Assembly: GCA_005191425.1 (NCBI GenBank) | Contig: SUPR01000163.1 | Location: 1 to 5,836, forward strand | Reading direction: 5' to 3' | DNA from: Candidatus Helarchaeota ASGARD archaeon Hel_GB_B | GTDB lineage: Archaea > Asgardarchaeota > Lokiarchaeia > Helarchaeales > HEL-GB-B | DNA length: 5,836 bases | Shown: positions 3 through 5,836 of the stretch, one piece after another | Layout: each line of letters starts with the position of its first letter | Numbering within the stretch: the stretch's first letter is position 1 | The notes under the pieces: generated by a model | Told to the model about the DNA's origin: nothing | Databases searched by the model: none | The model's input: only the letters and a program-made list of their open reading frames with translations | Translations under genes and position numbers: made by a program

Positions 3-251
3 CTATTATCAGGACGTTTAGCAAATGAGAAATTCATGGAAATGATATTAGATGAAAAATTAAGAACAATCGCTCCTCTTCGAATAATGAAAACATATGC
101 ACAAATTGCGAAAAGAGCCGCTCAAGGTGCTGCTTTTATTGCTGAAGGGTTAAGTGGAGGTTCGACTAAACAAATAGTAGATAATCTCCGACTTAAAGAG
201 GCAAAAGGTAATATATTAGACGATATTTATTTATCAGTGAAAAAAACATAG
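3..251 (+). CDS. 3' end of a DUF1464-family (predicted butyrate-kinase-like, ASKHA fold) protein; gene begins upstream of the window
   Basis: The frame of the 36..251 ORF stays open to the window edge (cta tta tca gga cgt tta gca aat gag aaa ttc atg = LLSGRLANEKFM), so ATG36 is internal. The motifs LSGR ... AKRAAQGAAFIAEGLSGG ... IVDNLRLKEAKGNILDDI match my recollection of the DUF1464/COG2441 C-terminus (ILSGR...AKEAAQGAAxIAxGLAGG...LxIxEAxGTVLD). Recognition is from memory, not a search. Confidence 0.7.
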   Translation, partial: LLSGRLANEKFMEMILDEKLRTIAPLRIMKTYAQIAKRAAQGAAFIAEGLSGGSTKQIVDNLRLKEAKGNILDDIYLSVKKT

Positions 252-277
252 AACAATAATATTAAATAATTAAAAAT

Positions 278-283
278 TGAGGA
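278..283 (+). promoter_or_regulatory. Shine-Dalgarno-like element (TGAGGA) before the flavoprotein gene
   Basis: TGAGGA lies 7 nt upstream of ATG291 in an otherwise almost pure A/T 39-nt spacer. Confidence 0.45.
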
Positions 284-290
284 TTTTATT

Positions 291-869
291 ATGAATATGA
301 GAATTGCTTGGGGAATTACTGGCGCGGGTCATTACCTTCGGGATAGTTATGAAGTAATCAAAAGTCTAGTCGAAAATAATTATAAAATTGATGTATTTTT
401 CTCAGAAGCTGGAAAAACAGTAGCAAAAATGTATGGTGTGCTAAAAAAGATTCAGGATCTACATGAGAAACATAAAGAACATCTTACTTCTATCTTTTAC
501 GATAGCGGTCAATCTCCAGGATATATTGTGAGTGCACGTTTTAATCTTAATAGATATCAAGCTTTAATTATTAGCCCTGTAACTTCGAATTCTGTTGCAA
601 AAATGAATGTAGGAATCGCAGACACCTTAATAACCAATATTTTCTCCCAAATGATAAAGGGTTCGGGAAAAATTCTGCTCGTTCCATGCGATCTCGTTTG
701 TGGGGATATTGAAACGGAAATACCGAATGGAAATAAAATTACAATTAGGGTTGATCAATTTAACTGTCAAAATGCTTTAAATCTGAGAAAATTTCCAAAT
801 GTTTCTCTTTTTGAGCATCCGAAAGAAATCTTGGCAAAATTAAAAGAATTCGAGAATGATGAAGCTTAA
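291..869 (+). CDS. HFCD-family flavoprotein, dihydromethanopterin reductase-like (DmrX/DmrB/AfpA group), no ferredoxin insert
   Basis: N-terminal MRIAWGITGAGHYL, FFSEAG and SPVTSNSVAKMNVGIADTLITN are flavoprotein (PF02441-type) FMN-binding motifs. The GHxL and ETEIPNG..I.IR..N..NL..HP.EI segments resemble DmrX/DmrB/AfpA. No CxxCxxC motifs. The start may be ATG291 or ATG297. Confidence 0.8.
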   Translation: MNMRIAWGITGAGHYLRDSYEVIKSLVENNYKIDVFFSEAGKTVAKMYGVLKKIQDLHEKHKEHLTSIFYDSGQSPGYIVSARFNLNRYQALIISPVTSNSVAKMNVGIADTLITNIFSQMIKGSGKILLVPCDLVCGDIETEIPNGNKITIRVDQFNCQNALNLRKFPNVSLFEHPKEILAKLKEFENDEA

Positions 870-2483
870 ATGGTAAAAAAAAAAACTCGGATACTATTAA
901 TTACTGGAAGAGATGCTTTTAATGATTTATTAATGATTAATTGGGGAAATCTAATTACAAAATATGAAATAGAGATAGTTAAAGCGCAAGTTCCGATTAT
1001 TTCCCTAATAACAAAAAAAAAAATTGAAACTACACTATCCAGTTTTGAATATGATAAATTTGACTTGGTAATAACATCCGGTCTAATTCCTTGGGATTTA
1101 AGTAAGATAAACTCGCCTTTTTCTTCCAAAATAAAAAAAGGTCCGAGATTCTTAGCAAATTTACCCGAAATATTGAAAAATTTCGATCCGTTTAATTTGT
1201 CATCACAAATTCCTGCAGATAAATTATATACCTTTTCAAAAGAACAAAATTTAGATTTATTAATCGATAAAAATCGGCGTAAATTTAAAGAATTAGATAA
1301 AAAAAACGGATTTTATTTATCAAAATCTGAATCAGGAGTTATTTTTTCTCCAATTTTGCCCCCTGTAGTAATTGGTGAAATTATTGATGCACCCAAACTA
1401 TCATTTGAAGAACTATCAAATAAAATTGAGAAATATCAAAAAAACGGAGTAAGTATTATAGACATTGGAAGTATCTCAGATGAAAACCATAGTAAAGAAA
1501 TTTTTGATTTAATTTCGCGATTAAAAAGCAAATTTCAGATTCCTTTTAGCATTGATAGTATAAATCCTGAAGAGATTCATTCCGCGATAAATGCAGGAGC
1601 GCAGATGGTTCTTAGTGTTACAATTGATAATTATGAAGAATTATTGGATTTGGATAAAGATATCGTCCTAGTAATAATCCCAAACTCTGAAAAAGATTCA
1701 AAATCTTTATCTACTGAAGTAAAAATGGATAGATTAATAAATTTATATAAAATTCTCAGAAAAAAAGGTTTTACGAAAATTTTAATGGATCCAATAACAG
1801 GAGTCCCAATATCCCCCGGATTTAGTCCAACTATTGAAATATTAATTTCTTTAAGAAAAAAAATAGATCTTACTTATATAGATTTCAAAAATCATGACAA
1901 TTTACCAAAACCTCAGCTTTTTATGGGATTTGGAAATGTTACAGAATTGATTGACGGAGACTCATCGGGAATAAATACTTTATTATCTATCATTGCCGTA
2001 GAATTAGGAGTTAGTGCAATTTTAAGTACAGAATATTCTAATAAATGTAGAAATAATTTAAGCGAATTAAGTAAAAGTATTAAATTAGCCTATTATGCCA
2101 ATCAAATGCATGTTCCCCCCTTAAATCTGGGAATTACAGCTTTCCAATTTAAAAATAAACAAGAATTTCCAAAATATATGCAATTTGGAGAGCCTTTAGA
2201 AAAAATCCAACTTGAAGATCGCCCAGCAATAATGGATCCGAAAGGATATTTTAAGATATATATAGATGAAGAAAAAAACCAAATTCTTATTACTCATTTC
2301 AACAATTCTGTTAATTTTATGGATGCAACACTTACTCTTGTAGGGGATAACGCAGAATCCCTATATAAGACAATCATAAGCAGAAAACTTGTATCAAGGC
2401 TCGATCATGCAGCCTATTTAGGCAAAGAACTTATTAAAGCAGAATTAGCATTAAAAATTGGAATACCGTATTCCCAATCCTAA
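870..2483 (+). CDS. Dihydropteroate-synthase-like protein (MJ0107/Orf20 type, TIGR00284-like) with C-terminal DUF4346 domain
   Basis: Pterin-binding TIM-barrel motifs IIDIG, FSIDS, LMDP and FMGFGNVTELIDGDSSGIN. C-terminal MDPKGYFKIYID...G.NAESLYK...VSRLDHAAYLGKEL.KAE.AL..G..Y.Q is typical of DUF4346. ATG870 directly follows the upstream TAA (taaATG), suggesting translational coupling. Confidence 0.85.
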   Translation: MVKKKTRILLITGRDAFNDLLMINWGNLITKYEIEIVKAQVPIISLITKKKIETTLSSFEYDKFDLVITSGLIPWDLSKINSPFSSKIKKGPRFLANLPEILKNFDPFNLSSQIPADKLYTFSKEQNLDLLIDKNRRKFKELDKKNGFYLSKSESGVIFSPILPPVVIGEIIDAPKLSFEELSNKIEKYQKNGVSIIDIGSISDENHSKEIFDLISRLKSKFQIPFSIDSINPEEIHSAINAGAQMVLSVTIDNYEELLDLDKDIVLVIIPNSEKDSKSLSTEVKMDRLINLYKILRKKGFTKILMDPITGVPISPGFSPTIEILISLRKKIDLTYIDFKNHDNLPKPQLFMGFGNVTELIDGDSSGINTLLSIIAVELGVSAILSTEYSNKCRNNLSELSKSIKLAYYANQMHVPPLNLGITAFQFKNKQEFPKYMQFGEPLEKIQLEDRPAIMDPKGYFKIYIDEEKNQILITHFNNSVNFMDATLTLVGDNAESLYKTIISRKLVSRLDHAAYLGKELIKAELALKIGIPYSQS

Positions 2484-2500
2484 TATAATCCTACTAAACA

Positions 2501-2508
2501 TTTAAAAA
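2501..2508 (+). promoter_or_regulatory. Possible archaeal TATA box for the hydrolase gene
   Basis: TTTAAAAA ends 22 nt before ATG2531, a spacing compatible with a leaderless or short-leader transcript. Weak evidence in such AT-rich DNA. Confidence 0.3.
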
Positions 2509-2530
2509 AATCAATCAACAAATAGAGATC

Positions 2531-3298
2531 ATGTCTCAAAAAATAATAAACATTCCAAAAAGTTCGAAGGGTGGTTTAAACGGGCTTCATTTTGAAACCG
2601 GAAAACCCTATGATGAAATTCCCATTGTTATTTTAGCACATGGGTTCACCGGCGATCAGCATGAATGGGGAAGATTTACTAAAACTGCCCAGGAATTCAA
2701 TAAAGCAGGATTTGATGCCATAAGTTTTGATTTTTCGGGTTCAGGAAAAAATCCCCGAGAACCAGTTACACTTTTTAAGCAAGTTCAAGATTTAAAAGAT
2801 GTTCATGAATGGGTAAAATCCAAGGGTTATAAGAAAATAAATGTTCTTGGGTTAAGTTTCGGAGGTTTAACAGCCCTGGTTGCAAATTTACCAAATATTA
2901 ATGCTACTGTTTTTTGGGCGCCAGGATTTTACGTTAAACGCGCTTTCCCTAAAAAACATATTTTTCTCATGTGGCTACAGTCAACATTTTCAAAGAAACC
3001 CCATAGTATGCCATCAGCGAATAATGAACCAATTTTAATTAAATATAATTTTATGAAAGAAGTAATCAAGTTGGACATCGATAAAATTCTTTCTAACTAT
3101 ATAACCCCCAGTATTGTGATTCAAGGCGATATGGATGAAACTGTGCATTATGATTGGAATTTAGAAGCATTTCAGCATATGCCGCAAGATGAGCATCATA
3201 AATTTGTTAAAATCGAAGGTGCTGGTCACGACTTTAAAGAAGCACATCTTGATCAATTTATTGAGAATTCTATTAATTGGATTAATAAATATAATTAA
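2531..3298 (+). CDS. Alpha/beta-fold serine hydrolase (esterase/lipase/peptidase S9-like)
   Basis: Oxyanion-loop LAHGFTG, nucleophile elbow GLSFGG (GxSxG), acid in IQGDMDETV and His in GAGHDF form a complete Ser-Asp-His triad in canonical order. No signal peptide is evident. Confidence 0.9.
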   Translation: MSQKIINIPKSSKGGLNGLHFETGKPYDEIPIVILAHGFTGDQHEWGRFTKTAQEFNKAGFDAISFDFSGSGKNPREPVTLFKQVQDLKDVHEWVKSKGYKKINVLGLSFGGLTALVANLPNINATVFWAPGFYVKRAFPKKHIFLMWLQSTFSKKPHSMPSANNEPILIKYNFMKEVIKLDIDKILSNYITPSIVIQGDMDETVHYDWNLEAFQHMPQDEHHKFVKIEGAGHDFKEAHLDQFIENSINWINKYN

Positions 3299-3300
3299 AT

Positions 3301-3313
3301 ATTTTTTCTCTTT
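3301..3313 (+). terminator. Oligo-T tract, possible archaeal terminator after the hydrolase
   Basis: ATTTTTTCTCTTT immediately follows TAA at 3296-3298. Confidence 0.35.
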
Positions 3314-3321
3314 CATAAATC

Positions 3322-3330
3322 CTTAAATAA
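3322..3330 (+). promoter_or_regulatory. Possible TATA box for the TIR-LRR gene
   Basis: CTTAAATAA, preceded by CATAAAT, ends 19 nt before CTG3350, which would place a TSS near the proposed start codon. Confidence 0.4.
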
Positions 3331-3349
3331 TTCGAAGTGATCGTCAATT

Positions 3350-5035
3350 CTGAAACCTATAAAAATTTTTATCAGTTATGCCACCAAAGATGCAGAGATT
3401 TTTCAAGTTCCCAAACTCGCCAAAATTTTAGAAAGTTACCGCGAAATTGAAAAAGTATATTACTGGCAAGAAGATGCATCAGGATCTAATATTAAATTTA
3501 TAGAAAAATATATAAAAATTGCAGATACTTGTATAATTTGCTACTCCAAAGCCGCAATCGAATCACAACCAGTAGAATTGGAGCGAGATATGGCAGAATA
3601 TTTGGGAAAACAGATTATACCTCTTTTTACAAATATAAAAGATGTTCCTCTAATTATTAGAGACCAAACAGGAGTGGATATTAAAAATAAATCGATCCAA
3701 ATGATTTCTCGTGATATTATCCAATTAATTCTAAAAAATAAATCCCTTTCTGGAGGGATATCCCACACAATAAGTTCAACTCCGGAATTAGAAAAAAAAT
3801 TAGAAGAAGAAAAAAGAAGAAATGAAATTGTTGATTATCACGGAACGCCTCTGTTGAAATTTGAATACGATGTTCTAATGGCTTTGGATGAAATCATTGG
3901 TGAAATTCCAATTGTATTTAAAGTAGATCGGTGTACTTTTGGGTTCACTATTAGGGAGAATCACGTGGTTCAATTAGGGCTTTTTCATAAAGAATTAACT
4001 TCTCTCCCTGAGAGTATAGGGAGTCTAACTTTGCTCACAGAACTATATTTAGGAGGTACTCAGTTAAATTCTATCCCCGACACGATAGGAAATCTAAAAT
4101 CACTCAAGGAACTGGATTTAGAGAATAATAAGTTAACCTATCTCCCCAAGAGTATAGGGAATCTAACTTCGCTCATATACTTAGATTTAATAAGTAATCA
4201 GTTAAACTCTCTCCCGGAGAGTATAGGTAACTTAACTTCGCTCAAAATACTATATTTAAGTGAGAATCAGTTAATCTCTCTTCCCGACACGATAGGTAAT
4301 CTAAAATCACTCAAGGAACTGGATTTAGAGAATAATAAGTTAACCTCTTTCCCCGAGAGTATAGGGAGTCTAACTTTGCTCACAGAACTAAATTTAGGAG
4401 ATAATCAGTTAAACTCTCTCCCGGAGAGTATAGGTAACTTAACTTCGCTCAAAATACTATGGTTGTATTATAATCAGTTATCCTCTCTCCCCGAGACGAT
4501 ATGTAATCTAAAATCACTCAACATACTATATTTGCATAATAATGAGTTAACCTCTCTCCCCGAGAGTATAGGGAATCTAACTTTGCTCACTGAGCTATAT
4601 TTAAGTGAGAATCAGTTAACTTCTCTCCCTGAAAGTATGGGGAACCTAAAATCACTCAAAGAACTAGATTTAGAGAATAATCAGTTAACCTCTCTCCCCG
4701 AGAGTATAGGAAACCTAAAATCACTCAAAGAACTCGATTTAAATAAGAATAAGTTAACCTATCTCCCAGAGAGTATAGGGAACCTAAAATCACTCAAAGA
4801 GCTAGATTTAGAGAATAATCAGTTAAGATCTCTCCCCGAGAGTATAGGAAACCTAAAATCACTCGAAAAACTAGGTATTGATAACAATGGGTTAACCTTT
4901 CTTCCCGACACGATAGGTAACCTAAAATCACTCACAAAACTATCTCTCAGCTATAATCAGTTGACCTCTCTCCCCAGGAGTATAAAAAAATGGATTAAAT
5001 ATTTAAAAAAGTATGGATGCAATGTTGCTAAATAA
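3350..5035 (+). CDS. TIR domain - charged linker/cap - 15x leucine-rich repeat protein (~561 aa; probable CTG start)
   Basis: Manual translation upstream of TTG3578 shows no stop until TGA 3338-3340. From CTG3350 it reads (M)KPIKIFISYATKDAEIFQVPKLAKILESYREIEKVYYWQEDASGSNIKFIEKYIKIADTCIICYSKAAIESQPVELERDMAEYLGKQIIPLF. This carries TIR hallmarks: betaA IFISYA..D, betaC, alphaC S.PV..E with Glu78 at 3581-3583, and betaD K.IIP.F. It is followed by ELEKKLEEEKRRNE, a cap region, and 15 LRRs of 23 aa (LxxLxLxxNxLxxLPxxIGxLxx). Confidence 0.88.
   Translation: MKPIKIFISYATKDAEIFQVPKLAKILESYREIEKVYYWQEDASGSNIKFIEKYIKIADTCIICYSKAAIESQPVELERDMAEYLGKQIIPLFTNIKDVPLIIRDQTGVDIKNKSIQMISRDIIQLILKNKSLSGGISHTISSTPELEKKLEEEKRRNEIVDYHGTPLLKFEYDVLMALDEIIGEIPIVFKVDRCTFGFTIRENHVVQLGLFHKELTSLPESIGSLTLLTELYLGGTQLNSIPDTIGNLKSLKELDLENNKLTYLPKSIGNLTSLIYLDLISNQLNSLPESIGNLTSLKILYLSENQLISLPDTIGNLKSLKELDLENNKLTSFPESIGSLTLLTELNLGDNQLNSLPESIGNLTSLKILWLYYNQLSSLPETICNLKSLNILYLHNNELTSLPESIGNLTLLTELYLSENQLTSLPESMGNLKSLKELDLENNQLTSLPESIGNLKSLKELDLNKNKLTYLPESIGNLKSLKELDLENNQLRSLPESIGNLKSLEKLGIDNNGLTFLPDTIGNLKSLTKLSLSYNQLTSLPRSIKKWIKYLKKYGCNVAK
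3992..4984 (+). repeat. Coding tandem repeat, 69-bp unit x ~14.4 (LRR array)
   Basis: Units start at 3992, 4061, 4130 ... 4958 with exact 69-nt spacing and no indels. Consensus is about cag tta acc tct ctc ccc gag agt ata ggN aaY cta aMW tca ctc aNN NNN cta NNN tta NNN NNN aat. Confidence 0.97.
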
Positions 5036-5040
5036 ACAAT

Positions 5041-5118
5041 AATTTTTTGTATATTTCATTCCAAAAAATCTCGCCCTAAAAAAACTAAATTTTAGTAAAA
5101 ATAAGAGAGAAAAAAAAA
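5041..5118. terminator. Convergent termination zone with T tracts on both strands
   Basis: AATTTTTTGT follows the TIR-LRR stop on +. A-runs near 5080-5085 and 5110-5118 are T-tracts on -, downstream of the minus-strand small ORF. Confidence 0.3.
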
Positions 5119-5154
5119 GTCATATTTTCGTATATTTTATTCTTAAAATCTGTT

Positions 5155-5265
5155 CTATTTCACACGTTTTTTTTTACCATTTCCGTCACGTGGTGGATTA
5201 TGCCCGCCACGTTTACCTGTCCGAGGCCCTTTCCCTCTTGGACCTGTTCCATCTCGATTAGGCAT
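5155..5265 (-). CDS. 36-aa basic Gly/Pro-rich microprotein with a DUF5320-like N-terminal motif (not in ORF track)
   Basis: The reverse complement translates as MPNRDGTGPRGKGPRTGKRGGHNPPRDGNGKKKRVK*, with TAG at 5157-5155. MPxxDGTGPxGxGPxTG is the motif I recognise from DUF5320 proteins. The segment 5161-5260 is 50% GC by hand count against very AT-rich flanks. An in-frame ATG at 5280 would add MSLII. Confidence 0.75.
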   Translation of the reverse strand: MPNRDGTGPRGKGPRTGKRGGHNPPRDGNGKKKRVK

Positions 5266-5287
5266 AATAATAAGAGACATTTAAGTA

Positions 5288-5300
5288 ATTTATAATTTTC
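5288..5300 (-). promoter_or_regulatory. BRE-TATA promoter of the microprotein gene
   Basis: The minus strand reads GAAAA-TTATAAAT, with the TATA ending 22 nt before ATG5265. This fits an archaeal leaderless transcript starting at MPNRD rather than at ATG5280. Confidence 0.5.
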
Positions 5301-5376
5301 TGTCCTTAATTATCCTTCAAAATCCCTATCAGTGGCTTTTAAGAAAAAAAACAATGAAATATTAATTTAAACCATC

Positions 5377-5835
5377 TTATTTTGGAATTTTTTCGGTGTT
5401 TTTCTTTAGTGTGGTTAATTTAAAAAGAAAAACAGCAACTCCAATCGTATATAATACAGATAGAGCAAAATACAGAGGAATTGTTTGTACCATTCCTAAT
5501 GAAATCATTGAAATAACATTAAAGAGATAAAGATAGATGTAATAGACAAGAGTAAAATAATTAGGTAGTGAATTTACTGGCGGAATTTTATGTTTCATCG
5601 AGTATATTATAAGAATACATATCGAACCGATATAAATAAATAAAAACATAAACCAAATCCAATTTTTAAATACATAGGTTAAGAATAATAGAGGCATAAG
5701 TAAAATTACGGATCCAATAATTCCTGTAAGGGTTCGGATAAATAATATCGAAAATTTATCTTGATCATATTTCACATCAAATATGTGCAAGATTAAAGAG
5801 CATACAAATATTACAAAAAACCACCCATAGAAATT
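5377..5835 (-). CDS. C-terminal part of a polytopic membrane protein, possibly CruF/DUF422 (carotenoid-biosynthesis-protein family)-like; gene begins beyond the window
   Basis: The frame is open past TTG5790 to the window edge, giving NFYGWFFVIFVCSLILHIFD... and about 5 hydrophobic helices in the visible part. NFYGWF resembles the NF/YxGWF motif of the DUF422/CruF family. The CDS is well supported; the family call is tentative. Confidence 0.6.
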   Translation of the reverse strand, partial: NFYGWFFVIFVCSLILHIFDVKYDQDKFSILFIRTLTGIIGSVILLMPLLFLTYVFKNWIWFMFLFIYIGSICILIIYSMKHKIPPVNSLPNYFTLVYYIYLYLFNVISMISLGMVQTIPLYFALSVLYTIGVAVFLFKLTTLKKNTEKIPK

Positions 5836-5836
5836 A

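Follow-up and report, generated by a model that had tools for sequence, protein, structure and literature searches.

Locus and reading frame

The 5836-bp stretch of DNA analysed here, which we call the window, is the entire contig SUPR01000163.1 (C73) of a metagenome-assembled genome (MAG) of the Asgard archaeon Candidatus Helarchaeota Hel_GB_B (3.54 Mb in 182 contigs, ~30% GC, 93.7% complete). Our subject is a gene in its second half that links a TIR-type domain to an array of leucine-rich repeats (LRRs), and the way in which this array has been recombined within itself. The gene is longer than its canonical open reading frame. Canonical-start frames begin only at TTG 3578 or ATG 3590 and end at 5035 on the + strand, and the full frame extends upstream as far as a TGA stop at 3338-3340 and takes in an in-frame TIR-type domain, so that the predicted product is a cytoplasmic TIR-LRR protein. 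Relatives of its LRR part in the databases carry the names of Promethearchaeota, Hodarchaeota, Helarchaeota and other Asgard archaea. The gene is built as follows.

3341 to 5035, + strand: whole TIR-LRR open frame, 564 aa and the stop at 5033-5035 (565 codons in all)
3359 to 3361, + strand: ATA codon, candidate near-cognate start, at the position of the homologues' Met (xKIFISYATKD)
3365 to 3688, + strand: TIR-type (STIR superfamily) domain, Pfam TIR_2 at 36.7 bits against a cut-off of 28
3824 to 3991, + strand: N-terminal LRR cap (IVDYHGTPL ... GLFHK), common to LRR paralogues and relatives
3992 to 4957, + strand: 14 complete LRR units, U1-U14, of 69 bp (23 aa) each, all in frame
4958 to 5032, + strand: partial 15th unit and C-terminal cap, in frame

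The repeats are of the 23-residue type LxxLxLxxNxLxxLPxxIGxL, with all 14 units in register, and Pfam recognizes the array as LRR_14 (1e-75), LRR_8 (2e-48) and LRR_4 (1e-45). The units share a mean pairwise identity of 75% in nucleotides and 63% in amino acids, the closest pairs reaching 91-93% in nucleotides. Residues L2, P6, L12, L15 and L18 are invariant across the units, and positional entropy is highest at unit positions 21, 22, 19, 3, 1, 16 and 17. In the AlphaFold2 model (mean pLDDT 87.5) a beta-alpha TIR-like domain is followed by a disordered linker of ~30 poorly structured residues, the cap and a regular LRR solenoid. The LRR part is predicted with pLDDT values of 97-98, every unit contributing a 3-residue strand at positions 17-19 and a 5-residue helix at positions 7-11. 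From the position of this strand, unit positions 16-22 make up the concave-face segment, in agreement with an earlier, sequence-only reading of this DNA, which had placed the variable x positions on the concave ligand face and whose list of residue combinations at these positions was correct on recheck. The protein has no signal peptide and no membrane segment and would therefore be cytoplasmic.

The nearest relative of the cap, at 54-58% identity, comes from a related genome (L025 397-1131, G018 contig C182) and consists of LRRs only (244 aa). Its first residues are those of the IVDYHGTPL cap and it closes with a comparable W.K.L.K.GC.V tail; the capped LRR module thus occurs without a TIR domain too.

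A mosaic of its own units

Within the array, tracts of DNA recur at several different spacings, as listed here together with one chimeric unit.

4076 to 4139 and 4283 to 4346, + strand: U2 tail with U3 head, repeated as U5 tail with U6 head, 63/64 nt, offset 207 bp (3 units)
4195 to 4253 and 4402 to 4460, + strand: tract shared by U4 and U7, 59/59 nt, offset 207 bp (3 units)
4010 to 4055 and 4355 to 4400, + strand: core of U1 found in U6, 45/46 nt, offset 345 bp (5 units)
4250 to 4274 and 4595 to 4619, + strand: tail of U4 found in U9, 25/25 nt, offset 345 bp (5 units)
4664 to 4726 and 4802 to 4864, + strand: tract of U10-U11 repeated in U12-U13, 61/63 nt, offset 138 bp (2 units)
4544 to 4612, + strand: U9, a chimera whose head is closest to U11 and whose middle is closest to U1/U3/U6, with the tail of U4

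These five duplications had been put forward by the sequence-only reading, and on recomputation every match and offset came out exactly as claimed. The unit at 4544 (U9), described there as a composite, does join the TLLTEL middle of units 1 and 6 to the YLSEN tail of unit 4. The longest exact repeats in the array measure 59, 49, 36 and 36 nt. U4 and U7 differ just in their last 15 nt, where 7 of 12 bases change after 59 identical nt and YLSE becomes WLYY. The ends of U6 still match U3, so that the U1-core tract in U6 reads as a conversion patch inside the three-unit duplication. In most units the head, middle and tail thirds have different nearest relatives. The simplest history consists of several events: duplication of U2-U4 into U5-U7, a U1 patch into U6, replacement of the U7 tail, formation of the U9 chimera, and the tract shared by U10-U11 and U12-U13.

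Recombination tests, which had been suggested as a check, place the mosaic beyond chance. The pairwise homoplasy index (PHI) test on the 14 aligned units, with 5000 site permutations, returned p=0 to 0.0002, and a longest-run test on the U4-U7 pair gave p<0.0005.

A second natural allele

Scanning the Joint Genome Institute (JGI) metagenomes with the unique N-terminal part of the gene yielded one contig of 5588 bp, here called L040, which is collinear with window positions 249-5836 with zero indels and differs from it at 57 sites. Outside the array there are five differences in 4553 nt (0.11%; the flanks are 99.9% identical); the other 52 are inside it, almost all within a single segment.

4481 to 4729 (249 nt), + strand: allele-variable cassette, U8-U11, 51 differences from L040 (Fisher p 5e-33)

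Divergence between the two versions amounts to 18.6% in 4481-4759 and to 18-20% over units 8-11. Units 1-7 and 13-15 are identical in both, long repeats included, and unit 12 differs by one base. The two contigs end at exactly the same right-hand base (5836), for which strain variation, coverage or an unassembled repeat may be responsible.

The content of the cassette points to its source. In the window, the middle of U8 is U5-like and U10-U11 match U12-U13; in L040, U8 is U4/U7-like, U10 is U1/U6-like and the head of U11 is U2/U5-like. The tract shared by U10-U11 and U12-U13 has its right-hand limit (4726) in common with the allele difference (4729). Among the units common to both alleles, 48/51 of the L040 states (94%) and 45/51 of the window states occur at the same repeat phase, where 32% would be expected at random. 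With the alternative states already present at the same phase elsewhere in the array, what separates the alleles is a set of in-register gene-conversion patches that leaves the number of units unchanged. The synonymous sites of the cassette have diverged strongly (pS 0.355), and the ratio of non-synonymous to synonymous divergence (pN/pS) is 0.38, which fits template switching between diverged units and not point mutation. We consider it likely that the mechanism is intragenic conversion and that the two versions are real alleles.

Further array versions in public metagenome runs

Of 13 listed runs, 12 contain the stretch or part of it; they come from eight metagenome studies of marine sediments and hydrothermal vents. 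The runs are represented by k=31 contigs that break inside the array, and the parts they leave uncovered carry no information. Contigs from runs X2, X3 and X4, which belong to three other studies, reproduce the unit junctions of the window with 0-1 differences over nearly the whole array (pieces 4010-4120, 4110-4327, 4317-4384, 4371-4590, 4392-4541, 4536-4686 and 4703-5123). In run X1 the flank is 100% identical to the window and the array forms differ. One X1 junction passes from a U7 tail to a U4/U7-type head. A unit in the region corresponding to window 4323-4728 reads ...KSLNYLNLENN, and the tail of U8 reads LEYN in place of LHNN; neither form is present in either full allele. Four substitutions in U13-U14 (4828, 4852, 4877 and 4916) are all non-synonymous. 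Together these forms, which come from contigs and not from spanning reads, indicate that at least a third version of the array exists.

The sequence-only reading had claimed recent or ongoing intragenic recombination or gene conversion that diversifies the specificity of the receptor. Conversion that is recent on the scale of the population is borne out by the L040 cassette, drawn from the array's own repertoire, and by the X1 variants; a change of specificity is something that we infer.

One alternative is that the differences between window and L040, and perhaps part of the mosaic, arose during short-read assembly, from a mis-threaded repeat graph or from mixed reads of co-occurring strains. 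The window is the whole of a 5.8-kb contig in a 182-contig MAG, the array contains exact repeats of 36-59 nt, no single read or run contig spans it, and X1 shows several incompatible junctions at similar depth. On the other hand, two independent assemblies are identical in U1-U7 and U13-U15, both long repeats included, and the L040 variant units hold bases and combinations that are absent from the window array and so are not mis-threaded window units. The reading frame is kept in both versions, and the contigs of the three other studies just described argue in the same direction. We regard an assembly artefact as very unlikely.

A second alternative accepts the two versions as real and denies that they are alleles produced by intragenic conversion: they could be two recent paralogous copies of ~5.8 kb in one genome, or homologous recombination could have brought in the cassette from a diverged strain. 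A common right-hand end is what a repeat or variation boundary would give, the L040 units lie ~14% from their best intragenic donors, and at 4534 in X1 two contig versions are jointly deeper than the flank. The depth of the flank in X1 and X3 is nonetheless 5.8-6.9, close to the 5.4-6.9 of unique array pieces and not double that value. The k-mers of either contig end, like those of the array, fall on no other contig of the MAG, and the contig shows no end repeats that would indicate a segmental duplication. The 94% of alternative states already present at the same phase in shared units likewise speak for conversion within the array, and we think paralogy or import quite unlikely.

Search for external donors and genome context

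A search with the 20-, 24- and 30-mers of 3992-5035 gave no match outside this region in the 3.54-Mb assembly. Donor cassettes are therefore missing from the assembled sequence, and no sign was found of exchange with the ~10 LRR paralogues of this genome, whose amino-acid identity is 41-59%. Paralogous LRR genes sharing identical tracts, which the earlier reading had suggested as possible donors, are thus not found there, and its analogy with the variable lymphocyte receptors (VLRs) of lampreys finds no counterpart in this respect. We reject programmed assembly of the VLR type, as no donor LRR cassettes were found outside the gene in this assembly, which is 93.7% complete. Diversification by a diversity-generating retroelement is rejected as well: differences between close units involve all four bases and are not adenine-specific, and the window genes include no reverse transcriptase, the rest of the genome not having been searched for one. 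A recombinase is likewise missing from the window.

The array is unusually homogeneous for its genome, as adjacent units share a DNA identity of 0.76, compared with 0.42-0.61 in the paralogues, whose internal exact repeats do not exceed 26 nt. Two LRR genes of related genomes show the same behaviour as the window array. One (L014, G004) contains a 51-nt exact internal repeat, and the other, an LRR-only gene (L015 1120-2508, - strand, G009 contig C145), a 203-nt exact repeat at a 207-bp (3-unit) offset; the latter array is even more homogeneous than that of the window.

The other genes of the window are metabolic or without assignment (DUF1464, flavoprotein, pterin-binding, hydrolase), and no defence island surrounds the TIR-LRR gene. 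The neighbour at 870-2483 encodes a pterin-binding protein with a C-terminal DUF4346 (and a weak match to CdhD), and that at 291-869 a flavoprotein (PF02441). A scan of the locus for sigma-70 promoters and terminators is not informative for an archaeon. Exact look-ups of the proteins of both alleles returned no record, and synteny followed through the adjacent hydrolase gave distant matches only. In protein searches of 31 and 41 related genomes and of a collection of 5.8 billion proteins, from which records very near the window may be missing, we found no orthologue closer than ~60% identity and no near-identical fragments.

A TIR-type head without a canonical start

The Pfam TIR_2 match covers profile positions 1-110 of 122, and the upstream open frame translates as ...KIFISYATKD..., a sequence that aligns with Asgard TIR-LRR homologues from their Met onward (these start M..IFISYA). 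A profile built from seven homologues matches SEFIR (2.5e-6) and, weakly, the structures of SARM1/tir-1, TLR2 and TcpB. Glu81 (3581-3583), which follows an S..P motif, is invariant among 7-8 homologues and, as judged from this motif context, probably occupies the position expected for the catalytic Glu of NADase TIR domains. Searched alone, the N-terminus that follows from the canonical start gave nothing in Pfam or Atlas; the best Atlas match, a TIR+LRR cluster at 0.75, serves as a lead only. A PDB search with a single sequence gave no more than chance matches to FokI.

The complete genome of Promethearchaeum syntrophicum MK-D1 bears on the missing start codon. Its TIR head is 67% identical to that of the window over 160 aa, likewise has no in-frame ATG, GTG or TTG, and carries ATT at the position of the homologues' Met, where the window has ATA. 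The two genomes also resemble each other in the DNA immediately upstream (CCTTAAA.AATTC.AAGTGATC), the mean column identity being 85% over 149 aligned columns; the start regions compared were 3296-3590 in the window and 2952-3160 in L041, which is the segment 3505773-3512252, reversed, of the MK-D1 chromosome NZ_CP042905.2. Conservation of a start-less TIR head together with its upstream DNA argues for translation from a near-cognate start and against a pseudogene. Initiation at ATA or ATT, if conserved in this way, may hold the TIR protein at a low level. A start by frameshift, for which an A5 run read as A4 would bring GTG 3337 into the TIR frame, is not favoured, because in MK-D1 a stop follows in that frame after 8 codons and there is no equivalent slippery site.

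In the MK-D1 homologue (L041 3001-5751) the same TIR head is followed by a coiled-coil repeat, EEQKRK, and by a long C-terminal region without LRRs; across Asgard lineages the TIR module is thus joined to differing sensor arms.

Selection on the exposed codons

When all unit pairs are taken, codons 16, 17, 19, 21 and 22 have a pN/pS of 1.04 (range 1.04-1.09) and the scaffold codons, that is, all codons but these five and codons 1 and 3, one of 0.34 (range 0.28-0.34). Six independent close pairs show a 3.9-fold enrichment of non-synonymous changes at the x codons (p=0.002) and no enrichment of synonymous ones. The exposed beta-strand codons are under relaxed constraint, which is the usual LRR pattern. 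Diversifying selection may possibly act on them, but its proposed action on a receptor face does not emerge from the data: the ratio of ~1.0-1.1 at exposed codons is not above neutral, and the replaced tract stands at 0.38.

The face itself is also instructive. In the window allele the faces of U10-U13 are all of the K-E/D type, and in L040 the face of U10 is still TE-Y-GC. One conversion in the window made units 10-11 more like units 12-13 and so homogenised the binding face there instead of diversifying it.

An alternative is neutral concerted evolution, which any tandem repeat with long identical stretches undergoes; here recombination is real and has no adaptive role, the variable x positions reflect relaxed constraint, and the gene may even be decaying. 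The near-neutral ratio at x codons and the low one across the replaced tract agree with it, as do the four units with the same KE-D-EN face, the homogenised U10-U13, a TIR frame without ATG, GTG or TTG and the lack of a defence-gene neighbourhood. Against it stand a 565-codon frame that stays open at 30% GC and is intact in both alleles, and the 67% amino-acid conservation of the TIR head in MK-D1, which includes the part upstream of any canonical start and argues that it is translated. Purifying selection on the scaffold codons and the enrichment of non-synonymous, and not synonymous, changes at x codons also stand against it. We hold this alternative to be rather unlikely.

Proposed mechanism

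Based on the mosaic, the recombination signal, an allele difference taken from the array's own repertoire and the TIR-LRR architecture, we propose that the array is the sensor arm of a cytoplasmic Asgard TIR-LRR protein that is reshaped by recombination between its own units. With a mean identity of 75% and exact stretches of up to 59 nt, the units would be alike enough for ordinary homologous recombination to copy between them. A single unit, or several in a row, would pass on tracts of ~25 to 210 nt to other units with the codon register preserved, through non-reciprocal gene conversion and at least one multi-unit tandem duplication. No dedicated machinery would be needed, in keeping with the lack of donor cassettes and, in the window, of a reverse transcriptase or recombinase. 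In the population, the outcome would be a set of 14-unit alleles that differ in the make-up of the units midway along the solenoid, and hence in their concave-face residues. A recombining TIR-LRR sensor arm is, in our judgement, probably the best explanation as a whole.

The earlier description of the gene as a receptor gains support from the in-frame TIR-type domain upstream; its role as an intracellular sensor, with a TIR effector and an LRR ligand-binding arm, is one that we infer, and differences between alleles may alter what the protein binds. That the process serves to diversify specificity is a tentative reading, towards which we lean somewhat less than away from it.

Several observations weigh against this proposal. 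Variants in unit number, which had been suggested as something to look for, did not appear, both full alleles having 14 units and no indel. The L040 variant units stand 9-10 nt (~14%) from their best intragenic donors, which suggests that some patches are old or come from unsampled alleles. The comparison rests on two full-length alleles and fragments, from short-read metagenome assemblies or k=31 contigs with no array-spanning read. At codons 19, 21 and 22 of the six independent close pairs, 11 changes are non-synonymous and 0 synonymous, a bias that falls short of significance (p=0.21), and pN/pS at the exposed codons is ~1 and does not exceed 1. PADLOC has no match for the TIR-LRR protein. 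No in-frame ATG, GTG or TTG precedes 3578, so that the TIR part is without a canonical start and the full-length protein is putative.

Should the protein act as a sensor in defence, the archaeal relatives of eukaryotes would have possessed variable recognition by LRRs linked to TIR signalling. A further step, which we regard as doubtful, would see the Asgard proteins as TIR-LRR innate-immune sensors without a nucleotide-binding (NOD) domain, whose LRR arm is a contingency region in which frequent in-register conversion yields strain-specific binding faces; if true, this would be a prokaryotic counterpart of the LRR diversification of plant resistance (R) genes, in the lineage closest to eukaryotes. 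In practical terms, the locus offers a concrete place where rates of conversion and the diversity of alleles can be measured in populations from sediments, and the unit content of such an array in a MAG is to be taken as one haplotype among several.

Comparison with known systems

Repeat arms that reshuffle themselves are a known route by which intracellular sensors, among them fungal and bacterial NLRs and plant R proteins, change what they recognize. Repeats of high internal conservation (HIC) are found in fungal NLRs (the WD40 proteins het-d, het-e and nwd of Podospora, and NLRs with ANK or TPR repeats) and in bacterial NLR-like proteins; their units are reshuffled within and between loci, their binding-face codons are under positive selection, and fungal and prokaryotic NLRs use WD, TPR or ANK repeats, typically without LRRs (Paoletti et al. 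2007, PMC1805685; Dyrka et al. 2014, PMC4986451; Dyrka et al. 2020, bioRxiv 10.1101/2020.01.06.895854). The window gene resembles them in having the repeat arm of an intracellular sensor-type protein, units that are unusually alike, exchange within the array, alleles that differ in their repeats, and variation on the binding face. It differs in that its repeats are LRRs, its host is an archaeon and it contains neither NACHT nor NB-ARC; no NLR/STAND nucleotide-binding (NOD) domain was matched in the protein by Pfam or PADLOC. Its internal identity is also lower, with means of 63% in amino acids (75% in nucleotides) against 80-90% in HIC repeats, and in its case the two full alleles agree in repeat number, a search for exchange with other loci gave nothing, and pN/pS at the binding-face codons is not above neutral. 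In the published prokaryotic cases the repeats are WD, TPR or ANK; in this Asgard gene they are LRRs, fused straight to a TIR-type domain.

Within the Asgard archaea, TIR-LRR proteins such as P0020, P0030, P0039 and P0119, which public databases list as TIR or LRR domain-containing proteins of Promethearchaeota, Helarchaeota and Hodarchaeota, have the same architecture and TIR head, with ~32% identity in the TIR domain and ~40-46% overall, and unlike the window gene they have canonical Met starts. A literature search on Asgard archaea, LRRs and TIR domains retrieved surveys of Asgard defence systems, of which PMC11291487 makes no mention of LRR arrays.

Two eukaryotic LRR systems also bear comparison. 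Plant TIR-NB-LRR and other R-gene LRRs (flax L, RPP5, Cf-4/9) evolve by intragenic unequal crossing-over and gene conversion. They share with the window gene a TIR effector and an LRR sensor, alleles that are patchworks of LRRs, and greatest variability at the solvent-exposed xxLxLxx positions, whereas the window gene has no nucleotide-binding domain between TIR and LRR, is a single locus and not a cluster, belongs to a prokaryote, and has a pN/pS at its exposed codons that is not above neutral. The VLRs of lampreys and hagfish arise by somatic assembly, in which a cytidine deaminase takes part and hundreds of cassettes on either side of the gene act as donors. There, too, LRR modules are recombined by gene-conversion-like copying; here, no donor was found outside the gene in the assembly and the variation is between strains, not cells. 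Taken together, the window array fails several features of HIC repeats and shares their mechanism, and it is an LRR example, in an archaeon, of the internally conserved repeat sensor behaviour known from fungal and bacterial NLRs.

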